Both the position numbers and the translations under genes were made by a program. Under the pieces are notes generated by a model. That model had not been told where the DNA came from and searched no databases. It saw only the letters and a program-made list of their open reading frames with translations. Below are positions 8,017 to 55,488 of a DNA stretch of 64,000 nt, piece by piece; the first letter of the stretch is position 1; each line of letters begins with the position of its first letter. The DNA is from Escherichia coli. GTDB lineage: Bacteria > Pseudomonadota > Gammaproteobacteria > Enterobacterales > Enterobacteriaceae. The DNA lies in the NCBI RefSeq assembly GCF_011045215.1, contig NZ_CP049201.1; one strand, written 5' to 3'.

Positions 8017-8445
8017 TCAGCCTTTACCCGTGAACGGGTCATCCAGCTTATCCAGACGTCTTTCTGCGTTGCGCAACACGTCCTGTGCTCCCGGGGTGGA
8101 TGCATATGCCTCCAGTTCAGCAGCAAGAGCCTGTTCCATTTCTGTTGCTGTCATGGCAGCAACATCGGCCGCAGAGCGGTTGTCGCGAATAATGAGGTAG
8201 CTGTGCAGGATATTAAGTGGTGCCACATTTTTATTGATGTTTTTCAGCCCCTGCTGAACCGCCAGCCAGTCGCCCAGCCACTGCAGGCGATACAGTTTGT
8301 GACGGTTGTAAGTTTCATTCGTTGTGTTACAGGCCATACGCCAGAACTCCTCAGACATGTTGATGAGCGTATTTTCACCTTCCGGCAGACTGAACGCAGC
8401 GAAGTCATCAATGCCGGACGGCAGTTGTTGATGATTTGTATTCAT
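8017..8445 (-). CDS. hypothetical protein (142 aa); first of three paralogous leaders MNT..QLPSGID
   Basis: AAGGA RBS 6-7 nt upstream. Its first 12 codons lie inside the repeated ~200-bp module. The overlapping plus-strand ORF 7897..8649 has no RBS and looks like an antisense artefact. Confidence 0.45.
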   Translation of the reverse strand: MNTNHQQLPSGIDDFAAFSLPEGENTLINMSEEFWRMACNTTNETYNRHKLYRLQWLGDWLAVQQGLKNINKNVAPLNILHSYLIIRDNRSAADVAAMTATEMEQALAAELEAYASTPGAQDVLRNAERRLDKLDDPFTGKG

Positions 8446-8649
8446 GTTTTTTCCTTACTAAGTCAGAGTGTTATGAATATAAAGATGCTGTCCGTACCTT
8501 CTGACCGGGGTCGCCAAACTTGCCGGTCTGAAAACGTACAGACAGTTACCGGGATTTTACTCCCGACAGCTGTACGTCCGGCACCCTTTTTTCTTTTTTT
8601 ACATAGTCCGGTTTCTGGCCCTGTGGGTCGGTATACCTGTTCCCGTTAA
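8446..8649. repeat. copy A of a ~200-bp repeated divergent-promoter module
   Basis: Near-identical to 9440-9660 and 10561-10750. Conserved core tgctgtccgtaccttctgaccgggg..ccggtctgaaaacgtacagacagttaccgggatttta.tcccgacagctgtacgtccggcaccc with internal inverted repeats (CTGTCCGTAC/GTACrGACAG; ACAGCTGT). Confidence 0.8.
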
Positions 8650-9165: not shown

Positions 9166-9439
9166 GCGCAAACTTAACGGCTTCCGGAATGCTGATGAAG
9201 CCATCATCCCGGAAAAACCAGTGGCGGCTGTGAATCAGCCAGTGTCTGAGCCAGCAGAGTCGGTAGGCGAGCTTATGGTCTGCGCCGGGAAAGATTTCAG
9301 TTCCCTGGTCAAAGAAGGTTTTACAACGTTCCACATCGTCGGGGGCCATGCGTCCGGCTTTCCAGTCTTCAAAGTATTTTTCATTGCTGTCAGTGACATA
9401 AGGACAGTTGTTATCAATGCCGGACGGCAGTTGTTTTTC
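8996..9439 (-). pseudogene. paralog of the MNT..QLPSGID leader gene with ATG replaced by ATA at the conserved start
   Basis: Conserved RBS AAAGGAG is followed by ATAAATACAGAAAAACAACTGCCGTCCGGCATTGAT (INTEKQLPSGID) where copies A and C have ATG. The reading frame stays open to 8996; an internal ATG at 9349 may still give a 117-aa product. Confidence 0.3.
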
Positions 9440-9675
9440 TGTATTTATAAAAATTCTCCTTTAAAACAATCTGTTATGAGTATGCGAATGCTGTCCGTAC
9501 CTTCTGACCGGGGTTGCCAGACTTGCCGGTCTGAAAACGTACAGACAGTTACCGGGATTTTATTCCCGACAGCTGTACGTCCGGCACCCTTTTTCCTTTT
9601 TTTACACAGCCAGGTTTCCGGTTATCTGCGGGGAAGTGACGCACCTGGCGGGCTGAGAGATATGGAGGTGAAAGT
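9420..9675. repeat. copy B of the ~200-bp repeated divergent-promoter module
   Basis: Direct alignment with copies A and C (seen in sequence). Confidence 0.8.
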
Positions 9676-10413: not shown

Positions 10414-10564
10414 AAGGATGAGCCGATTCAATACAGTTCGGGGGAAAGGGGTTACAGAGCCCGTCTTTTTCCGTCATGACCTTTCCGTTACTCAACAGCC
10501 AGAACTGCAGGGGGTATTTCACTTCAGATTCAATGCCGGACGGCAGTTGTTTTTCTGTATTCAT
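10334..10564 (-). CDS. hypothetical small protein (76 aa), third MNTEKQLPSGIE paralog
   Basis: RBS AAAGGA and conserved N-terminal codons inside repeat copy C. Its 3' end overlaps the plus-strand gene 9676..10413 by 80 bp, so one of the two calls may be wrong. Confidence 0.3.
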   Translation of the reverse strand: MNTEKQLPSGIESEVKYPLQFWLLSNGKVMTEKDGLCNPFPPNCIESAHPFTPFQHVEKKALPDWLRAFHTDVSHS

Positions 10565-10760
10565 AAATTTTTTCCTTTAAAACAACTTGTTATGAATGAA
10601 CGAATGCTGTCCGTATCTTCTGACCGGGGGCGGCAAACTCACCGGTCTGAAAACGTACGGACAGTTACCGGGATTTTATTCCCGACAACTGTACGTCCGG
10701 CACCCTTTTTCCTTTTTTCACATAGCCAGGTTTCCGGCAGTCAGAGGGGGAGGGGACACC
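10545..10760. repeat. copy C of the ~200-bp repeated divergent-promoter module
   Basis: Direct alignment with copies A and B; lies immediately upstream of the helicase gene. Confidence 0.8.
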
Positions 10761-16237: not shown

Positions 16238-17482
16238 ATGGCGTTACCTGCGGAAAGCCTGATTGCGTATACCCTGGAAAAAATGAAGCACCGTATGACC
16301 ACCGGAGCCCGGAAGGAGGAGGGGCGAATACGCAGCGGACTGTTGTTCACCGGCAATGTGCACGATGCCATTCCGCGTCGTCTGTTGCTGGATACGCGTC
16401 TTTCACCGCTGGACAAGATGGCATGGATGATGATCCGGCTGTATGCGCAGAATAATGAGGGGGCCATTTTTCCTACTTACGATGAACTGCAACTGCAGCT
16501 GGCATCGCCGGGAAAGGGAAAAGCTTCCAGAGAAACCGTCAGCCGGGTATTGCTGATGTTGCGGATCACGGGCTGGCTGAGCCTGTGTAAACGGGTACGT
16601 GATGATAAAGGCCGGGTTCGGGGAAACATTTACGCCCAGCATGACGAGCCCCTGACGTTCTGCGATGCAGAGGCGATGGATCCGCGTTATCTGGATATAG
16701 TGGCAGAAGCCTGTATGAGCCGGAACCGGACCATCAGTCAGACGGCACGGGATATTCTTTGTGAAATAAAAAATGATCCGGGAATGCGTCACTATCACAG
16801 CCATATCAGTCAGCTGGAAGCCCGGATAGGAAGTGCCCAGACACCGGGGCAGATGGCTGCCCGTCAGCGGGTGACAGAGGACAGAATGCGGCCGGGTTCG
16901 GAAACCGAACCAGTGGTGAGAACACTGAGTTCGGCACCGGAAAAGCTGAGTTCGGAAACCGAACCGGGTAAAAAAATGGGGCAAAAAAGACAGAGTTCGG
17001 ATCCCGAACCATCAGGAAAATCAGCAGGTTATCACAGAGTCCGGGAACCGAACCATTACGTACGTAATATCACACACAGTGTGATTAAAAACACGTACGT
17101 ACTGCCGGCGTCGCTGACGGGGCAAATCAGGGAGGAAGATGCCATCATGCTGACTAGTCAGTTGCAGGCGTTGCCGGAAGCGCTGGCACAGGGGGTGCTG
17201 GAAAGCCTGTCAGGGATGCTGGGCAGTCAGTCACTGCAGAACCCGGTGGGCTGGCTGCTTGCAGTGCTGAAGCGTGCCCGGGAGGGAAATTTTTATCCAC
17301 CGAAACAGAAACAGCGCGTCGCTGCATCAGCCACCATACAGGCGGGAGCGGGAGGGCGCACCACTTCGCAGCCTGTTGTCACCCGGAAACGTACAGAACC
17401 CATTTCAGCAGAACGTCTGAGTGGCATTGTGGCAGGACTACGGGCCTCCCTTCGCAACCGTCCTGCGATGAGAGCCCGGTGA
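16238..17482 (+). CDS. putative ICE replication-initiation-associated protein (414 aa)
   Basis: GAGGTG RBS. Large conserved ORF immediately upstream of the iteron array; basic Gly/Ser/Pro-rich C-terminal half. Function inferred from synteny. Confidence 0.5.
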   Translation: MALPAESLIAYTLEKMKHRMTTGARKEEGRIRSGLLFTGNVHDAIPRRLLLDTRLSPLDKMAWMMIRLYAQNNEGAIFPTYDELQLQLASPGKGKASRETVSRVLLMLRITGWLSLCKRVRDDKGRVRGNIYAQHDEPLTFCDAEAMDPRYLDIVAEACMSRNRTISQTARDILCEIKNDPGMRHYHSHISQLEARIGSAQTPGQMAARQRVTEDRMRPGSETEPVVRTLSSAPEKLSSETEPGKKMGQKRQSSDPEPSGKSAGYHRVREPNHYVRNITHSVIKNTYVLPASLTGQIREEDAIMLTSQLQALPEALAQGVLESLSGMLGSQSLQNPVGWLLAVLKRAREGNFYPPKQKQRVAASATIQAGAGGRTTSQPVVTRKRTEPISAERLSGIVAGLRASLRNRPAMRAR

Positions 17483-17502
17483 TGGCGTTGTGATTCACGT
17501 TC

Positions 17503-18090
17503 ACAGAGAGCAAAAATCAACCAGTGCTGCCAGTGGCAGCATAGAGCAAAAATTAGCCAGTGCTGCTCGGGGCAGCATAGAGCAAAAATTAGCCAGTGCT
17601 GCCCGGGGCAGCATAGAGCAAAAATCAGCCAGTGCTGCCCGGGGCAGCATAGAGCAAAAATCAGCCAGTGCTGCCCGGAGCAGCATAGAGCAAAAATTAG
17701 CCAGTGCTGCCCGGGGCAGCATAGAGCAAAAATTAAGCAGTGCTGCCCGGGGCAGCATAGAGCAAAAATTAGCCAGTGCTGCCCGGGGCAGCATAGAGCA
17801 AAAATCAGCCAGTGCTGCCCGGGGCAGCATAGAGCAAAAATTAAGCAGTGCTGCCCGGGGCAGCATAGAGCAAAAATTAGCCAGTGCTGCCCGGGGCAGC
17901 ATAGAGCAAAAATCAGCCAGTGCTGCCCGGGGCAGCATAGAGCAAAAATCAGCCAGTACTGCCCGGAGCAGCATAGAGGAAAAATTAGTCAGTGCTGCCC
18001 GGGGCAGCATAGAGCAAAAATTAGGCAGTGCAGCCCGGGACAGCATAGAGTGAAAATTAGCCAGTGCTGCCAGTGTCACCAAAGAACAAA
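17503..18090. repeat. tandem array of about 15-16 copies of a 36-bp unit (iteron-like; candidate vegetative origin)
   Basis: Unit GCAGCATAGAGCAAAAATTAGCCAGTGCTGCCCGGG repeated head-to-tail with few substitutions (TTAGCC/TCAGCC/TTAAGC). Each unit holds a 7-bp palindrome GCTGCCC-G-GGGCAGC. The periodicity creates artefactual repetitive ORFs on both strands. Confidence 0.85.
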
Positions 18091-18354
18091 AATTATGCTG
18101 CGTCAGCAGCATGGAAGGCGGCGGCACTGAATATCCTGAAACATCTGACGGTAAACCGCCGAAGCCCGGCGTCAGCCGGAAACGTCCTGACAGGATGCAG
18201 TGCTCTCCCCGGCCCTGCCAGACCCTGTTTGTTTCAGGAAAAAGCCTGTGTCACATAAAAGAACCGGAGTACAGAGGTAAAACAGAATACTTGCCGCCGT
18301 TTTTTCCGTCAGTATACTTTTTCGTGCTGAAATTCTGGCTAAGGAAAGATTTTT

Positions 18355-19974: not shown

Positions 19975-21984
19975 ATGCAACTTTACTTGTGTGAAAAACC
20001 GTCACAGGCGCGGGATATTGCCCGGGTGCTGGGGCTCAGCGGGCGGGGAGAGGGCTGTATTGAAGGTGATACTGTCACGGTCACCTGGGCTGTGGGGCAT
20101 CTGCTGGAGCTGGCCGCCCCGGAAGCGTACGGGGAACAGTTCGGGGTTCCCTGGCGTATGGAGTCGCTTCCCGTTCTGCCTGAAAAGTGGCAGATGACGG
20201 TTAAACCGCAGACGAAATCCCAGTTTACGGTGATCAGCCGCCTGCTGAAGCGTGCGTCTGAAGTGGTGATTGCCACGGATGCGGACAGGGAAGGAGAAGT
20301 CATCGCCCGGGAACTGCTGACGTACTGCCGGTACCGGGGGCCAGTCCGTCGGCTGTGGCTGTCTGCCCTGGATGAGGCCAGCGTCCGGGAGGCGCTGGCA
20401 AATATTCTGCCCGGTGAGCAGACGGCCCGTCTGTATGATGCCGGCCTGGCCCGTGGTCAGGCTGACTGGCTGATCGGGATGAACCTGACGCGTCTGTATA
20501 CCCTTAAGGCCCGGGCGTCGGGGATCCAGGATGTGTTGTCCGTCGGAAGGGTACAGACGCCGACACTTGCCATGGTGGTCAGACGGGATCAGGAGATTGC
20601 CGGTTTTGTGCCACGCCCCTGGTGGCAGGTGTTTGTCGGGCTGGAGAAAGACGGGATCCGGTTCCGGGTCGTCTGGGTGGCGGCAGAGCAGTACTGCGAT
20701 GAAGAGAAACGGTGCGTGAACGTTCAGGCGGCCCGGGCTGTTCTTCAGTTGTGTCAGCAGACACCGTCAGCGGTGGTGCATGAGGTGACCCGGAAGTGTG
20801 AAAAAACACCGGCTCCGCTCTGTTTTTCGCTGGGTACACTGCAGGAGGCCTGCTCCCGGAAATTTGGTATGGGAGCGCAGACTGTGCTGAATATCGCGCA
20901 GTCCCTGTATGAGACGCACAAAGCCACGACGTATCCCCGGACGGACTGTGGCTATCTGCCTGAATCCATGCAACAGGAAAGCCGGGAGGTACTGGCGGCG
21001 ATGGCGCGTTCAGACCCGGCCCTGACGCCGGTTCTGGCACAGCTCGATCCCGGTTTTGTTTCACGTATCTGGAATGACAAAAAGATTACGGCACACCATG
21101 CCATTATTCCGACCCGGCAGGTCTTTGATATCAGGGCACTGAGTGAAGATGAACTGAAGGTGTATCAGCTTATCCGCCAGCATTATCTGGCCCAGTTTCT
21201 GCCCCTGCAGGAGTCTGATATTACTGATGCAACACTGACACTCGGCGGGCAACGGTTCAGGGCCCGCGGGAAAGTGAATGTGGTGACGGGCTGGCGAAGC
21301 CTGTTTTCCGGGGAGGCTGCAGAAGTTGCTGAAGGTGAAGATGAACAGACGACGGAAATGGCGTTGCCGGCGCTTGAACGGGGAGAGCACTGCCGGATTA
21401 GCGGTTCAGAACTGAAGGACCGGATGACGTCACCTCCGGCACCTTTTACGGAAGGAACCCTGATTGCCGCCATGAAGAATGCTGCCAGTCAGGTCAGCGA
21501 CCCGAAGCTGAAAAAAGTGCTGCGGGAGAATGCCGGTCTGGGGACGGAGGCCACGCGGGCCGGTGTGCTGGAGGTGTTATTTGCCCGGCAGTATCTGGAG
21601 AAGAGCGGGAAGCATATCCGGTCAACGCAACGGGGCAGGGAACTGACGGCCGCCCTGCCGGAAGCCCTGACCAGTCCGGGCATGACGGCGCTGTGGGAGC
21701 AGGCTCTGGATGATATTGCACAGGGCAGAATGTCACTGGATACCTTTATGGGCAGACAGCAGCAGTGGGTGCGTCATCTGGTCTCATCCGGGCGGGAACA
21801 GCCCTTCAGTATGACGGTTCCGGTGACGCCGCCGTGCCCGCTTTGTCAGGGGCCGACCCGGCAGCGAAAGGGAAAGCACGGACTGTTCCGGAGCTGTCAG
21901 CGGTATCCTGAGTGTAAGGGCGTGGTGAACACGCAGAAAAAGGCCGGGCGACGAAAAAACGCGGGAAAAACTAAAACGGAGTAA
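19975..21984 (+). CDS. topB: DNA topoisomerase III (TopB-like)
   Basis: TOPRIM N-terminus (MQLYLCEKPSQARDIARVLGL...VVIATDADREGEVIAREL), type IA core, C-terminal zinc-ribbon cysteines (CPLCQG...CQRYPEC). Confidence 0.9.
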   Translation: MQLYLCEKPSQARDIARVLGLSGRGEGCIEGDTVTVTWAVGHLLELAAPEAYGEQFGVPWRMESLPVLPEKWQMTVKPQTKSQFTVISRLLKRASEVVIATDADREGEVIARELLTYCRYRGPVRRLWLSALDEASVREALANILPGEQTARLYDAGLARGQADWLIGMNLTRLYTLKARASGIQDVLSVGRVQTPTLAMVVRRDQEIAGFVPRPWWQVFVGLEKDGIRFRVVWVAAEQYCDEEKRCVNVQAARAVLQLCQQTPSAVVHEVTRKCEKTPAPLCFSLGTLQEACSRKFGMGAQTVLNIAQSLYETHKATTYPRTDCGYLPESMQQESREVLAAMARSDPALTPVLAQLDPGFVSRIWNDKKITAHHAIIPTRQVFDIRALSEDELKVYQLIRQHYLAQFLPLQESDITDATLTLGGQRFRARGKVNVVTGWRSLFSGEAAEVAEGEDEQTTEMALPALERGEHCRISGSELKDRMTSPPAPFTEGTLIAAMKNAASQVSDPKLKKVLRENAGLGTEATRAGVLEVLFARQYLEKSGKHIRSTQRGRELTAALPEALTSPGMTALWEQALDDIAQGRMSLDTFMGRQQQWVRHLVSSGREQPFSMTVPVTPPCPLCQGPTRQRKGKHGLFRSCQRYPECKGVVNTQKKAGRRKNAGKTKTE

Positions 21985-22220
21985 TCTTAATTTCTCCCTG
22001 TTCAGGATCGGGTAGTGTGGTTAAGCTTTGATGTATACCCCCGTTATCAGCGGGAGGCTGGCTCAACGAAAACACAACGGCGTTCAGTCAGCTACTGATA
22101 CCACAACCGGCCATCGCACATCCTGTCGGGTTGTAAGGCGCATGCCCTCCGTGAAAAACGCGCCGGGATTTATCCCCGGAGACAAGTGAGATAACCACCG
22201 GGCTGGTACCCCCCTGTAAC

Positions 22221-22248
22221 GGCGCTGTATTTGCAGCGCCGTTTTTTA
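22221..22248 (+). terminator. rho-independent terminator downstream of topB
   Basis: GGCGCTGtatttgCAGCGCC followed by TTTTTTA. Confidence 0.65.
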
Positions 22249-22312
22249 TTCCGGGTTGACTTTCCATGGATGTGTTTTAAAAATAACCGGGCTTATTTGC
22301 TGCATCTGCAGC

Positions 22313-22496
22313 CAGCCAATGTTTCAGCAGTCTGAGAGAAACGCCTTCGGGTGACTGCCAGCCAACGTTTCACCGGCCTGAGAGAAACACCTTCGGGTGG
22401 CCGGAATATCCTCGTAGCCTGAAAGAGGATGCCTGTGGGCGGTACATCCGTTTAACCTCTGGAAACGGATATCACTGTTCAGTGATTGAGGTCTTT
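22313..22496 (+). ncRNA. structured repeat element R1 (two pseudoknot-like units plus terminal hairpin domain); candidate sRNA or single-strand structural element
   Basis: Units CCAGCCAAyGTTTCa-stem-TGAGAGAAACrCCTTCGGGTG-stem, then ..GGTACATCCGTTTAACCTCTGGAAACGGATATCACTGTTCAGTGATTGAGGTC followed by TTTTT. Homologous to R2 and R3 with compensatory stem changes. Confidence 0.45.
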
Positions 22497-22614
22497 TTAC
22501 TTCTCAGACAGCCGGAATTCAGCTGATCCGGCATCCCCGACGGGAACATTCACTTCCGTCAGGGATGGTGATGTTCTCCGTCATCACATTTTTTAACTCC
22601 ATGGAGAAATCATC

Positions 22615-23070
22615 ATGTCTGTAAATACTGCTAAAACTGAATACTTTAATCTGACCCTGAAAGGTCTGGGGTATCTCAGTAATGTACGTCAGGTGAATCA
22701 CCAGAACGGCTCGTTTCTCAGCTGTGTGGTGAATGCGCTGAGCGGACCCACGGACAGCCCGTCCTACGTCCGTTTTGATGTCACGGTTGCCGGTAAAGAG
22801 GCGACTGCCCTGATTGCCCGCTGCCAGAAGGCGGTGGATGAAGATCGCAAGGTGCTGCTTGGCTTCACGCTGAGCAACCTGTCCACTGACATCTTCACTC
22901 TGAACAAGGGAGAGCATGCCGGTGAACAACGCGTCAGCCTGAAGGCCCGCCTGATCAAGGTGGACTGGATCAAGATAGGCCAGGAGATGGTTTACAAGGC
23001 TGAAAAATCAGACTCCCAGCCGCCGCAAAACGGCACCATGCAACAGCAATACGCAGAAAACTCTTTCTGA
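22615..23070 (+). CDS. conserved ICE protein upstream of ssb (151 aa; DUF3577-like)
   Basis: GGAG RBS; position between topB and ssb is typical for this ICE family. Family name is from memory. Confidence 0.55.
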   Translation: MSVNTAKTEYFNLTLKGLGYLSNVRQVNHQNGSFLSCVVNALSGPTDSPSYVRFDVTVAGKEATALIARCQKAVDEDRKVLLGFTLSNLSTDIFTLNKGEHAGEQRVSLKARLIKVDWIKIGQEMVYKAEKSDSQPPQNGTMQQQYAENSF

Positions 23071-23160
23071 TCGTACTTTTCTCAACCGTCCTGATGAAAA
23101 CAGACTGCCTCATCAGGGCGGTCTGTTTTCTTATTGTCTTTATCTTTAAGGAAACTTCTT

Positions 23161-23364
23161 ATGCAACAGCCAAATGGCATGCTGGCCGCACAGGCCGGCT
23201 ATACGTTACCCCTTCAGGTTCTCCGCAGCGTACGTGGTTATTATATTGGTACTCAGTGTGATGAGGGACCGGTGTCCCGCGAATCCGTGGAGTATTACAG
23301 AGACCATGAGCAGGCGGCACAGGCGCTGGAAAGCGGCACCTGGACGCAGCGGACGTGTGCGTGA
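23161..23364 (+). CDS. hypothetical small protein (67 aa)
   Basis: Short ORF with AGGAA-like RBS between the DUF3577-like gene and ssb. Confidence 0.35.
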   Translation: MQQPNGMLAAQAGYTLPLQVLRSVRGYYIGTQCDEGPVSRESVEYYRDHEQAAQALESGTWTQRTCA

Positions 23365-23379
23365 GGATGAGGAGGCTAT

Positions 23380-23913
23380 ATGGCATCACGCGGTATTAAT
23401 AAGGTGATACTGATAGGACATCTTGGACAGGATCCGGAGATTCGTTATCTTCCCAATGGCGGAGCCGTGGCGAACCTGACCCTGGCCACCAGTGAATCCT
23501 GGCGTGATAAACAGAGCGGTGAAATGAAGGAGCAGACCGAGTGGCACCGCGTGGTGATTTTCGGAAAACTGGCGGAGATAGCCGGTGAATACCTGCGTAA
23601 GGGTTCACAGGTGTACATCGAGGGCCAGTTAAAGACCCGGAAGTGGTTCGATCAGCAGAATGGTGTTGATCGCTACGCAACGGAAGTGGTGGTGAGTGTC
23701 AACGGCACCCTGCAGATGCTGGGCTCTCCGCGCCAGCAGGCCAGTGGTGCCGCACCCGTACACAGCGGTCAGGGAACTGCCGGTGCGCCGGCGGGTAACT
23801 CACCGTCACCGGCTTCCGGGAACGGCGGGGGAATGCCGATGGATTTTGACGACGACATTCCCTTCAGTGGACCGGGATATGGCGCTGAACGGCGGATTAT
23901 CCATGCCATGTAA
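23380..23913 (+). CDS. ssb: single-stranded DNA-binding protein with a 15-aa extension beyond the DDDIPF tip
   Basis: OB-fold N-terminus ([44 protein letters not shown]...), Gly/Pro/Gln-rich linker and acidic MDFDDDIPF motif, but the frame continues [15 protein letters not shown] before the stop. Confidence 0.85.
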
Positions 23914-52772: not shown

Positions 52773-52914
52773 ATAATTAATTTGTATCTACAGAATATTA
52801 ATGCTCAGGCTGGTTAACCCCGGCCTTTTTATTTTATATACAGACGTTCCTGTGAGACTATTGACATATAAAAGCCCGTCTTGCTAATCTTTTCCCGCTT
52901 TAATGTCGCTGTAT

Positions 52915-53101
52915 GCGACCATCCAAATCCCCAGTAGTCTGAGAGGGGAGCCTTCGGGCGGCTACCAGCCAATGCTTTAACGATCTGAGAGAAGCGCCTT
53001 CGGGTGATCGTAATGTTCTCGTAGCCTGGAAGAGAACGCCTTACGTGGCGGTACATCCGTTTAACCTCTGGGAACGGATATCACGGAACCGTGATTGAGG
53101 T
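52915..53101 (+). ncRNA. structured repeat element R2 (homolog of R1 and R3)
   Basis: Same unit architecture as R1 with compensatory stem substitutions (TCCCC/GGGGA in place of GTTTC/GAAAC; ACGATC/GATCGT in place of GCAGTC/GACTGC) and the conserved 3' domain GGTACATCCGTTTAACCTCTGGGAACGGATATCACGGAACCGTGATTGAGGTC. Confidence 0.45.
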
Positions 53102-53763
53102 CGTGCTGGCCTGAGGCCAGTTGTTCTATGCAGGCATCCTGCAGATGCCATGATTCTTTACTTACAGGCTTATCACGCCTGCATATCAATACGTTAAGTC
53201 TTTCAGAGACATGTCTGAACGAACTGACGTCTTTAATCTGTTCGGGCATTCGCCCCGGGCTTCTTACGACTGTACGCACTGCATAAGGCCATCTGAAATC
53301 TGGCCGCTTGCGTGCGTATGTGGAGTTTGAAGCTGCGCGGCGTCACTTTTGTCGGCGTGTAACGATGACAAAGTGACGCATGCGCGTCTGCTTTACGAAC
53401 CCGCACAAACCGTCGCGTCACGGGATGTTTTTTAACATTTGAAGAAGTGACCAGACGTGAGAGTGTTTTTTCAACCTTCTCTGCAAACGTACAGACGATA
53501 CCGTGAATAACGTTCATCGACCGTTCTTCTTGCAGAATTTTATTGTTTTTTAAGGAGTTTTATGTAGTGAGATGCCGAACCGGCGATACCACTTATTAGG
53601 GGTGGTATCGGGGGCGACCTGGAAACAGGTACAGCGAATGCTGCAGTCGGTGTGCAACACCGGTTTGTTACCCCTCAATACCTAAACAGTCTGCGCTACC
53701 CTGGCGCTCAGGCACTCATTACCCGAAGGATCGCAACGCTTAACCGTGTCGCCAGGGAGAATG

Positions 53764-53812
53764 CAGATGAATTTTGCTGTTGTGTTCACGGCACAACAGC
53801 AAAATTCATCTG
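53764..53812. promoter_or_regulatory. perfect 21-7-21 palindrome upstream of the recombinase gene (candidate operator or recombination site)
   Basis: CAGATGAATTTTGCTGTTGTG-ttcacgg-CACAACAGCAAAATTCATCTG, followed directly by the 14-bp palindrome GCTGTACGTACAGC at 53812-53825, 25 bp upstream of the GAGGAGG RBS. Confidence 0.5.
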
Positions 53813-53850
53813 CTGTACGTACAGCTGTTTAAGACAAAGAGGAGGTATCT

Positions 53851-54753
53851 GTGTCCAGACGTGAAAAATTACTGAAACAGGATTTGGTTGCTCATATCCG
53901 GAAAGACCGGGGGAGTTTCAAGAAGCTGAGTGACTATTCCCGGATCATGCACCGGTTTGCGGAAAGACTGGCTAAACTGAATATACAGATCAGTTCTGCT
54001 GCGCAGGTAAAAGTGCGGCATATTGAATTATATATGAACAGCAGGAGTGATGTTTCAAAGCGAACCAGAGAAAATGAAATGTCTGCAATACGGGTTATGT
54101 TACGTCAGGCCGGTAAACATAAAATGGCAGATCCTGAACATCCCCGTCTCAGCAATAAGGCGTTAGGTATTTCAGGAGGAAGCCGTAAAGGGACAAAGAA
54201 ATTAATTACGGATGAGCGTTTCCGGGAAATTCTTCAGCGCGTGGAAGCAAAAGATAAAGGGGTGGCAGCTGTTGTTAAACTGTCACGTTATCTCGGTCTG
54301 AGAAATGAAGAAGCTGTCCAGTCGGCCAAATCGTTACGGACGTGGAAAAAAGCGTTACAACGGGGAGATGAAAAAATAAGGGTGATTTTTGGTACGAAAG
54401 GGGGACGGGAAAGAATGACGACGGTTGTTGACCGGGATAAAGTTCTTGATGCTGTTAATTACGCACTCAAATATGCCAGTGAGCATAATGAACGTCTGAT
54501 AGACAGAGATAATCTTAAGTCGGCAATGGATTATTATCTTAATACGTTACGACGTTATGGAGAACTGAAAGGCGGAGATGAAACCGCACACAGTTTTCGG
54601 TACAGTTACGCCGCAAGTGCCATGAAATATCATATTATGAATGGTTACAGTTATAAGGAGGCACTTGCACTGACATCAATTGATCTTGGTCATGGTGATG
54701 GCAGAGGTCGATATATTGAACAGGTTTATTGTCAGTTATTAGGCTATGAGTAA
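53851..54753 (+). CDS. tyrosine site-specific recombinase (phage-integrase/Xer-like catalytic domain)
   Basis: GTG start with GAGGAGG RBS. Catalytic-domain boxes: LSRYLGLRNEEAVQ (box I Arg), HSFRYSYAASAM (H-x-x-R), GHGDGRGRYIEQVY (catalytic Tyr). Confidence 0.65.
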   Translation: MSRREKLLKQDLVAHIRKDRGSFKKLSDYSRIMHRFAERLAKLNIQISSAAQVKVRHIELYMNSRSDVSKRTRENEMSAIRVMLRQAGKHKMADPEHPRLSNKALGISGGSRKGTKKLITDERFREILQRVEAKDKGVAAVVKLSRYLGLRNEEAVQSAKSLRTWKKALQRGDEKIRVIFGTKGGRERMTTVVDRDKVLDAVNYALKYASEHNERLIDRDNLKSAMDYYLNTLRRYGELKGGDETAHSFRYSYAASAMKYHIMNGYSYKEALALTSIDLGHGDGRGRYIEQVYCQLLGYE

Positions 54754-55109: not shown

Positions 55110-55157
55110 CTTGACATCCATCTTTTGTGCCTTAAAAATATACAGGCTAACTTTGTT

Positions 55158-55414
55158 ACCTTCGGGTGACCATCCAATGTTTCGGTAGTCTGAGAGAAAC
55201 GCCTTCGGGTGACTACAGTTATCTTCGGATAACCATCCAAATCCCCGGTAGTCTGAGAGGGGAGCCTTCGGGCGACTACCAGCCAATGCTTTGACGATCT
55301 GAGAAAAGCGCCTTCGGGTGATCGTAATGTCTCCGTAGCCTGAAAGGGGACGCCTTAGAGGGTGGTACATCCGTTTAACCTCTGGAAACGGATATCACGG
55401 AACAGTGATCGAGG
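55158..55414 (+). ncRNA. structured repeat element R3 (three units plus terminal domain)
   Basis: Largest copy: a partial unit, then GTAGTC/GACTAC, GGTAGTC/GACTACC and ACGATC/GATCGT units, and the conserved 3' domain ending ..GATCGAGGTC followed by TTTTAT. Confidence 0.45.
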
Positions 55415-55488
55415 TCTTTTATACTTAACCCGTGCGGGAGATACATTCCCGTATGGTGATTGTATCTCCGGTTTTACTGTGGAGGTAC

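Follow-up and report, generated by a model that had tools for sequence, protein, structure and literature searches.

The STAXI motif was described as two or three tandem pseudoknots lying near genes for Ssb, topoisomerase, antirestriction and integrase proteins; an action as single-stranded DNA was considered in that study and RNA was preferred, given that UUCG tetraloops stabilize RNA and TTCG does not stabilize DNA (Weinberg et al. 2010, Genome Biol 11:R31, PMC2864571). The choice between DNA and RNA had rested on these loops alone since 2010. Rfam types the family (RF01728) as 'Gene; sRNA', and by reverse transcription quantitative PCR (RT-qPCR) STAXI and a further RNA, EFASI, were found in outer-membrane vesicles of Escherichia coli (PMC12370729, 2025). 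Here we analyzed three repeated elements, R1, R2 and R3, in a stretch of 64,000 nucleotides from E. coli (contig NZ_CP049201.1; the whole stretch is referred to as the window), the first of which precedes a DUF3577 gene and ssb. An earlier note on this DNA had proposed that the elements, if they fold in the transferred single strand of a conjugative element, could act there as single-strand promoters or priming sites, and had named a cis-acting RNA leader or small RNA (sRNA) as the alternative. Single-strand promoters of this kind (Frpo/ssi) were reportedly found on F-like and IncI plasmids by Masai and Arai in 1997. In Frpo elements, the -35 and -10 hexamers are both paired with complementary regions in the transferred strand, and the ssb, methylase and anti-defense genes of the known leading regions are templated by that strand (Samuel et al. 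2024, PMC11541004).

The window was scanned with Rfam at gathering cut-offs, and R1, R2 and R3, whose matches to the STAXI covariance model are full or nearly so, all scored above its curated gathering score (40.5 bits). The same three elements are linked by direct-repeat analysis, their shared 61-nt tail being 85-92% identical. R1 consists of two canonical units and one variant unit and R3 of three and one, with a period of 46 nt. The genes around them are those expected of the family: topB lies 5' and ssb 3' of R1, an integrase-domain gene follows R2, and ArdC is found in the R3-led run of E. coli UMNK88. R1, R2 and R3 are three copies of the known STAXI RNA family and nothing different in kind. 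The feature at R1 is real and ordinary in kind, its family having been known since 2010, and the hypothesis of the earlier note is a restatement of an open point on a known motif. What is new beyond the RF01728 model is a conserved promoter, a 3' pseudoknotted tail and a common leader design that extends down to the start codon. We consider it likely that STAXI at R1 is a sense-strand RNA leader rather than a single-stranded-DNA element, because family membership, a covarying fold on the sense strand, the conserved promoter, the co-orientation of genes and a fixed spacing all point that way.

The comparison was based on about 120 STAXI arrays, found with profile hidden Markov models of the unit and of the tail in scans of genome, metagenome, viral and plasmid sequences, and reduced to distinct sequences. 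Across these copies, each array comprises a 5' hairpin, one to four canonical pseudoknots, a variant pseudoknot and the pseudoknotted 3' tail, and a hairpin at the 5'-terminal place was found in all families compared. Read as an H-type pseudoknot, the canonical 47-nt unit has 97.4% of its cells paired (64 distinct units), against 33-51% in slid controls; 11 of the 14 pairs have changed on both sides, covariation extends to each of the five pairs in the pseudoknot helix, and the observed values, those of the pseudoknot helix included, were reached by none of 500 shuffles. The variant unit and tail taken together are 91.5% paired (slid controls, 38-47%); both sides have changed in 22 pairs, and again 0/500 shuffles reached the observed values. 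Covariation of the tail extends over copies from Escherichia, Photorhabdus, Erwinia, Serratia and metagenomes. A permissive Rfam scan of tail and leader returned no family other than STAXI.

The tail copies of the window (22446-22497, 53055-53102 and 55369-55416) are each made up of two hairpins and a pairing of a loop with the 3' end, an arrangement seen after every STAXI copy. A string resembling the RfaH ops site (GGCGGTAC, 22439-22446) was rejected, since the obligatory G position fails and the string varies in R3.

Which of the two strands is under selection can be read from the wobble pairs. From a Watson-Crick pair one transition leads to G·U and the other to A·C, and about equal numbers are expected if neither strand is favored. 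In the sense orientation, G·U outnumbers A·C by 87:11 in the canonical units and by 115:27 in the variant unit and tail, giving 202:38 in sum. The wobble pair G32·U41 is kept in 52/64 units, and the loop of 62 of these 64 distinct units is UUCG. The excess of G·U, the conserved G·U and the UUCG loop therefore indicate selection on the strand whose polarity matches that of the mRNAs made downstream; on the template strand, the conserved G·U would read as an A·C mismatch in the 3-bp stem of each unit. With the fold on the mRNA-sense strand, it follows that the folded strand cannot be the template of ssb.

A promoter stands at a conserved place in front of this fold. All three copies carry TTGAC(A/T) about 42 nt before the Rfam start, followed by a -10-like hexamer 17-18 nt further on. 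A promoter match of at least 8/12 with its -10 ending 24-36 nt before the first unit is present in 69/80 non-redundant copies, the density of such promoters at the conserved position is 23 times that elsewhere in the 150 nt upstream, and the similarity between copies vanishes upstream of the -35. An inverted-repeat search within 21990-22900 found no complementary partner for the -35 and -10 hexamers of R1. The simplest reading is an ordinary duplex promoter and a transcript that opens at about 22290 with the STAXI fold; since a conserved sigma-70 promoter lies at a fixed distance upstream, the repeat would form the 5' end of that transcript. Judged from the consensus, transcription of R1 probably starts near 22290, which is 6-8 nt 5' of the 5' hairpin.

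The genes that follow are arranged as expected for a leader. In 64 of 70 non-redundant contexts the genes downstream of STAXI are on its own strand, and all 18 loci with several arrays show one shared orientation. Start codons are found 107-123 nt after the tail in the DUF3577 class and 96-135 nt after it in an unrelated small-gene class; in the integrase-domain class EFASI intervenes, and the start is about 650-750 nt away from the tail. The predicted R1 leader is about 325 nt long, of which the STAXI fold makes up the first ~200 nt. A leader design is common to the DUF3577 and small-gene classes: a variable hairpin is followed by a CCCnnnCGGGAA-loop-UUCCCGnnnGGG hairpin, and the design ends with a segment complementary to the Shine-Dalgarno (SD)/start-codon region, a U-rich loop lying between. 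For R1-type leaders (calculated on the 97%-identical copy of UMNK88), the SD region has a predicted pairing of 0.86, which falls to 0.55 once the upstream part is shuffled (z = 3.6), and SD sequestration is predicted best for leaders of this type. A U-run stands right after the tail in R1 (22493-22498) and R3. No terminator after the tail is conserved across families, R2 and most other lineages being devoid of the U-run, which speaks for a leader rather than an independent small RNA, two roles that could nevertheless coexist. Nor was a leader peptide accepted, since the upstream AUG found in the anti-SD arm shares the reading frame of the gene in some leaders and lies out of frame in R1. The features of the window are given in table 1.

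Table 1. STAXI copies of the window, their parts, and the genes and other elements around them (ORF, open reading frame; positions count from the first letter of the window)
Feature	Position	Strand	Details
R1	22298-22448	+	STAXI RF01728 match, model positions 1-153, 135.2 bits, E 5e-29
R2, Rfam match	52904-53057	+	STAXI RF01728, 109.7 bits
R3, Rfam match	55154-55279 only; R3 runs to 55416	+	STAXI RF01728, 85.8 bits
Shared 61-nt stretch 3' of Rfam match	22437-22497, 53046-53106, 55360-55420	+	Direct-repeat analysis
R2, whole	52862-53102	+	Promoter (TTGACA, 18 nt, TAATCT, TG upstream), 5' hairpin, 2 canonical units, variant unit, tail
R3, whole	55111-55416	+	Promoter (TTGACA, 17 nt, AAAAAT), 5' hairpin, 3 canonical units, variant unit, tail
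R3, extra hairpin	55218-55233	+	Within the array of canonical units
R1, putative sigma-70-type promoter	22256-22284	+	TTGACT, 17 nt, AAAAAT
R1, 5'-terminal hairpin	22299-22312	+	GCUGC-AUCU-GCAGC
R1, canonical pseudoknot unit 1	22312-22358	+	Linker CCAGCCAAU, P1 5', S1 5', UGAGA, P1 3', S2 with UUCG loop, S1 3'
R1, canonical pseudoknot unit 2	22358-22404	+	46-nt period
R1, variant pseudoknot unit	22405-22445	+	AUCCU pairs with AGGAU; loop UGUG
R1, 3' tail domain	22446-22492	+	Outside RF01728; hairpin A 22446-22470, hairpin B 22471-22486
R1, tail pseudoknot	22455-22459 with 22488-22492	+	Loop of hairpin A (ACCUC) with GAGGU
R1, rest of leader after tail	22493-22614	+	Contains the next five features
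Leader hairpin	22511-22532	+	
Leader hairpin	22534-22566	+	CCCCGACGGGAA...UUCCGUCAGGG
Anti-SD arm	22568-22579	+	
U-run	22589-22594	+	Makes the hairpin at 22566-22586 terminator-like
SD	22603-22606	+	GGAG
topB	19975-21984	+	TIGR01056, 818 bits
Terminator-like hairpin 3' of topB	22218-22243	+	11 pairs, then TTTTTT
DUF3577/STY4534-family gene	22615-23070	+	Pfam PF12101 E 1e-57; NF040584 196 bits
Terminator-like hairpin, strong	23096-23130	+	15 pairs; between DUF3577 gene and next ORF
Small ORF	23161-23364	+	67 amino acids; 'hypothetical protein' in E. coli UMNK88
ssb	23380-23913	+	TIGR00621, 183 bits
EFASI RNA	53564-53721	+	RF02957, 55 bits (gathering score 51.2); between R2 and integrase-domain gene
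'Integrase domain' gene	53851-54753	+	After R2 and EFASI

The placement of R1 given by the earlier note, between the topB terminator and the ssb block, is borne out, the hairpin at 22218-22243 being followed by R1, the DUF3577 gene, the small ORF and ssb. At the sequence level, similarity of DUF3577 to SSB or to any PDB chain was not found. An AlphaFold model calculated from an alignment of 84 sequences, chosen among 760 representatives of the family, reached a predicted local distance difference test (pLDDT) value of 91.8 (a first model from eight sequences had been poor, with 44). Nearly all of its best PDB neighbors are SSBs of bacteria or mitochondria (Foldseek E from 2e-4 at a probability of 1.0; template modeling score 0.5-0.6 on the target). 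DUF3577, annotated as a core replication protein of integrative conjugative elements (ICEs), is thus a probable SSB-like oligonucleotide-binding (OB) fold by its predicted structure, and with ssb in the same run R1 would head an operon with two SSB-like genes, that of DUF3577 by prediction. Some members of the DUF3577 family have two such domains, recognizable as two matched stretches. A promoter-consensus scan found no promoter-like site between R1 and ssb, the segment after the hairpin at 23096-23130 included; expression of ssb past this hairpin would require read-through or an unrecognized promoter.

The gene 32 protein of phage T4 is a repressor of the mRNA that encodes it, starting from a pseudoknot in the 5' leader; its synthesis is thereby coupled to the amount of free single-stranded DNA, and it offers a model of what STAXI might do. 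The 'cis-acting RNA leader or sRNA' that the earlier note had kept in reserve is backed by the promoter, the sense-strand fold and the leader position. We propose that R1 would be transcribed from its own double-stranded sigma-70 promoter as the leader of the operon of DUF3577 (SSB-like), the small ORF and ssb, and that R2 and R3 would be modules of the R1 type set before other ICE genes, forming a reusable front end for several cassettes. This module (5' hairpin, tandem H-type pseudoknots, single-stranded conserved CCAAU and UGAGAG segments, and pseudoknotted tail) would fold in RNA and act in cis at the post-transcriptional level. The pseudoknot array may then serve as a multivalent platform through which a trans-acting factor controls the translation or stability of the downstream genes, and the preferred candidates for this factor would be the element's own SSB-like proteins, through a repression like that of T4 gene 32. 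Such binding and autoregulation by the SSB-like proteins, drawn from analogy, we regard as rather doubtful. A more elaborate form, in which STAXI and leader would together be an RNA sensor of the single-stranded-DNA status, appears unlikely: DUF3577 and Ssb would sit on the pseudoknots and linkers while no single-stranded DNA is available and would depart once it appears (when the ICE excises, replicates or enters a new cell), whereupon a STAXI-led regulon of the SSB-like genes, the integrase-like gene and the anti-restriction-type gene run would be turned on. If true, this would be a multi-operon autoregulation of the T4 gene 32 type that serves ICE establishment. Logic of the gene 32 kind would explain the company that STAXI keeps with DNA-handling genes, and it moves the idea of early expression to the level of RNA.

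Several observations weigh against a sense-strand RNA leader or against the role proposed for it. The nested minimum-free-energy RNA fold of R1 is no better than those of shuffles (z = -0.46), because pseudoknots are not modeled, and as DNA both the sense strand (z = -3.0) and its complement (z = -2.7) fold better than shuffles. Thermodynamic folding of R1, whether as RNA or as DNA of either strand, was dropped as evidence for being non-discriminating and leaving pseudoknots unmodeled. The promoter and transcription start of R1 are predictions from the consensus, and SD sequestration is not significant by a crude measure in several non-DUF3577 leaders, that of R3 included. Protein binding of STAXI RNA is a proposal made by analogy, and the analogy is imperfect in that the ribosome-binding region of T4 gene 32 is unstructured whereas that of the R1 leader is predicted to be paired. 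STAXI also occurs together with EFASI on 3-kb rolling-circle plasmids and as relics in O157 islands. No SSB-like gene follows it there, and a role confined to the operon would thus be too narrow a reading.

Two alternatives place the active fold in DNA. A promoter of the Frpo type, where the transferred strand folds and host RNA polymerase transcribes ssb before synthesis of the complementary strand, would suit a conjugative element with ssb, a methylase-like gene and, in relatives, ArdC behind its STAXI copies, and the DNA fold of the complement strand (z = -2.7) may be counted in its favor. So may the complement of each UUCG hairpin, which reads C-GAA-G, a stable DNA mini-hairpin motif. Known Frpo elements are moreover situated upstream of ssb in leading regions (PMC11541004). 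Because the polymerase copies it, however, the template strand must carry the Frpo fold, and this strand, the STAXI complement, would have an A·C in 52/64 units, with G·U to A·C standing at about 5:1 overall; the + strand could fold if it were the one transferred, but could not template ssb. The -35 and -10 have no complementary partner, so that no duplex is rebuilt in single-stranded DNA, the R1 promoter is no part of the fold and has the form of an ordinary duplex promoter, and the relaxase gene of UMNK88 is situated about 50 kb downstream of R1. The Frpo reading already appears contradicted on two defining features and is extremely improbable; the single-strand promoter of the earlier note is not supported, given a fold selected on the mRNA-sense strand, unpaired hexamers, and an ordinary sigma-70 promoter in most copies. 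A single-strand initiation site or single-strand origin (ssi/sso) differs in that the sense strand, provided that it is the transferred or displaced one, would fold, recruit primase or a primosome, and start complementary-strand synthesis at several places of the ICE. The three copies in the ICE are co-oriented, the sense strand gave the DNA fold with z = -3.0, and STAXI occurs on small Rep_1 rolling-circle plasmids, which need an sso. CTG is the start triplet of primase, and each unit carries a CTG. The transferred strand of an ICE must become duplex, and an sso is present in ICEBs1 (reviewed in PMC5812530); the idea of single-stranded DNA was itself raised by Weinberg et al. (PMC2864571). 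Yet the C of the CTG covaries with its partner (C-G 55, U-A 6, U-G 3), and it is therefore the pairing that is kept and not the triplet. By analogy to known leading regions, the transferred strand would be the - strand, not that of STAXI. On the plasmid NZ_CP059920.1 (L123), STAXI stands opposite to rep and to a sequence like a double-strand origin (dso), CTTGTATTTATACTTAAGGGATAACT, which is on the rep strand. If this plasmid is nicked in the manner of pC194-type origins, its displaced strand would presumably carry the STAXI complement, a point against a sense-strand DNA role to which we give little weight. The priming site that the earlier note had suggested for the folded single strand finds no support here and appears very unlikely, as it leaves the sigma-70 promoter position, the near-invariant UUCG, the conserved G·U, the spacing and link to the start codon, and the co-orientation unaccounted for.

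Two further explanations share the RNA with the leader. An independent trans-acting small RNA or protein sponge, whose transcript ends near the tail and acts elsewhere, could draw on promoters near consensus, on the U-run after the tail in R1 and R3, and on the gene-less copies on small plasmids. In having tandem repeats and unpaired motifs that are conserved, STAXI is similar to sponge RNAs such as CsrB. The Rfam type is sRNA, and STAXI was reported to be one of the more abundant vesicle RNAs (PMC12370729). As a replacement for the leader this is unlikely, given that no terminator is conserved after the tail, the spacing of 96-135 nt to the start codon is kept, and leader features continue to the SD; the sRNA role and the leader role are mutually compatible. 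Processive antitermination of the kind known from the put RNA of phage HK022, in which a promoter-proximal RNA would modify its own RNA polymerase to read through terminators in the long ICE operons, is suggested by an element that begins within ~10 nt of the inferred transcription start, by terminator-like hairpins downstream (22566-22586 and 23096-23130) with no promoter-like site before ssb, and by ICE genes that are unidirectional over tens of kilobases. This would be argued from analogy only; the permissive Rfam scan of the region returned no other family, the number of units varies from one to four, and the terminator sites are consensus matches. We regard antitermination as very unlikely. 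A sense-strand RNA leader is the reading that we retain.

At 97-98% identity, the window matches chromosomal islands of several E. coli strains, UMNK88 among them, annotated in these relatives as an ICE of the SPI-7/PAPI-1/ICEclc type between cadC and tRNA-Phe. Its gene order there begins with parA, dnaB-PI, parB, topB, STAXI, STY4534 and ssb, continues with pilL, traD, type IV secretion genes, TraG, STAXI, EFASI and the integrase-domain gene, and ends with STAXI, six small genes, (ArdC), DUF1281, methylase, cargo, a UvrD-like helicase, TraI and integrase, with all listed genes on a single common strand. No relaxase, oriT or tRNA was found in the 64-kb window; the ~50-kb distance given above is that of a traI-like relaxase gene in UMNK88. 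The integrase-domain gene has no match in NCBIfam or PHROG families, and directly 5' of its SD, after EFASI, lies a near-perfect 51-nt hairpin (53763-53813). R3 is followed on the + strand by a gene run in which several small unknown genes are joined by a DUF1281 gene and a methylase-like one; NCBIfam and PHROGs gave no function for the small genes. The run looks like an establishment or anti-restriction module, and in relatives it includes ArdC. The claim that R2 and R3 precede cargo genes on the same strand holds for the strand (+), whereas 'cargo' is a loose term for such a run. In the part of the window before R1, a 36-nt unit is repeated in tandem at least 15 times (17396-18187; centre 93-95% identical), and the copies presumably encode 12-residue repeats in a gene annotated as an STY4528-family island replication protein in relatives. 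Three 223-nt direct repeats in the parA-dnaB part (8411-8633, 9414-9636 and 10530-10752; 75-88% identical, at a spacing of ~1-1.1 kb) may mark paralogous small genes.

Outside ICEs, the STAXI-EFASI module is found on small plasmids of 3.1-5.3 kb, such as L123 (3140 bp) and NZ_CP100506.1 (L124, 5319 bp). L123 encodes a Rep_1 rolling-circle initiator (E 4e-89) and little else, and the module lies on the strand opposite to rep. A block GCATAAGGCCATCTGAAATCTGGCC...GCGGCGTCAC between STAXI tail and EFASI is common to the ICE (~53250-53340) and the rolling-circle plasmids (L123, ~2640-2720, - strand); it could be a third RNA element, or be tied to an ORF of 56-66 amino acids on the plasmids (MTPQQSALKAAS...). 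About 640 E. coli genomes, mostly of O157:H7 and other Shiga-toxin-producing strains, carry one relic STAXI copy, 87% identical to R1, among IS66 fragments in the urease/tellurite island (for example E. coli O157:H7 RIMD 0509939, locus L204, 5001-5180); it appears to have no obvious downstream gene. The pattern CTGAGAGN5CCTTCGGG used for the genome scan was too unspecific, about 15 loci being real STAXI among the matches listed. A connection of STAXI with c4 RNAs and phages has been published; here, the phage collection gave no match and the viral contigs only one. Matches in Rhodobacteraceae were rejected as STAXI: they represent one multi-copy element in a transposase-like ORF, with no Rfam match. 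This element of ~130 nt (14 loci), often at contig ends, holds CTGAGAG-N5-CCTTCGGG and an AGCCAAT-like string, and its likeness to a STAXI unit is probably due to chance.

The strand asymmetry of the wobble pairs, the promoter and the leader design settle the choice between DNA and RNA in favor of sense-strand RNA, within the limits of sequence analysis, and an Frpo-like early promoter use of STAXI by ICEs of the SPI-7/ICEclc type is unsupported by the sequence evidence. STAXI is now a defined module of promoter, pseudoknot array, tail and leader to the SD, and as such it can be set beside the known systems. Like Frpo, it is a structured non-coding part of a conjugative element and directly precedes ssb and genes of the anti-restriction type; the Frpo hexamers, however, lie inside a long template-strand hairpin, whereas those of R1 are unpaired and 5' of a fold on the non-template strand. 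The sso of ICEBs1 and of rolling-circle plasmids is likewise folded and part of a mobile element with a single-stranded stage, and STAXI occurs on Rep_1 plasmids, but an sso can function without a duplex promoter upstream and without being tied to a start codon, and the STAXI strand on the Rep_1 plasmid is apparently the wrong one. The put RNA of HK022 is also a promoter-proximal structured RNA before terminators in a mobile element, though dissimilar to STAXI in sequence and structure. The autoregulatory leader of T4 gene 32, said to have been worked out by McPheeters, Stormo and Gold in 1988 and by Shamoo and coworkers in 1993, resembles the R1 operon (not R2, R3 or the other copies) in a leader pseudoknot 5' of a gene for a single-stranded-DNA-binding protein. 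T4 has one pseudoknot and an unstructured, A/U-rich ribosome-binding region, in contrast to three to five pseudoknots here and an SD/AUG of R1 for which pairing is predicted (0.86), a U-rich loop being all that lies close by; STAXI also precedes non-SSB genes. The closest likeness is that to the STAXI family itself, with which R1-R3 share the tandem pseudoknots, the UUCG loops, an Enterobacterales host and the neighborhood of Ssb, topoisomerase and integrase genes.

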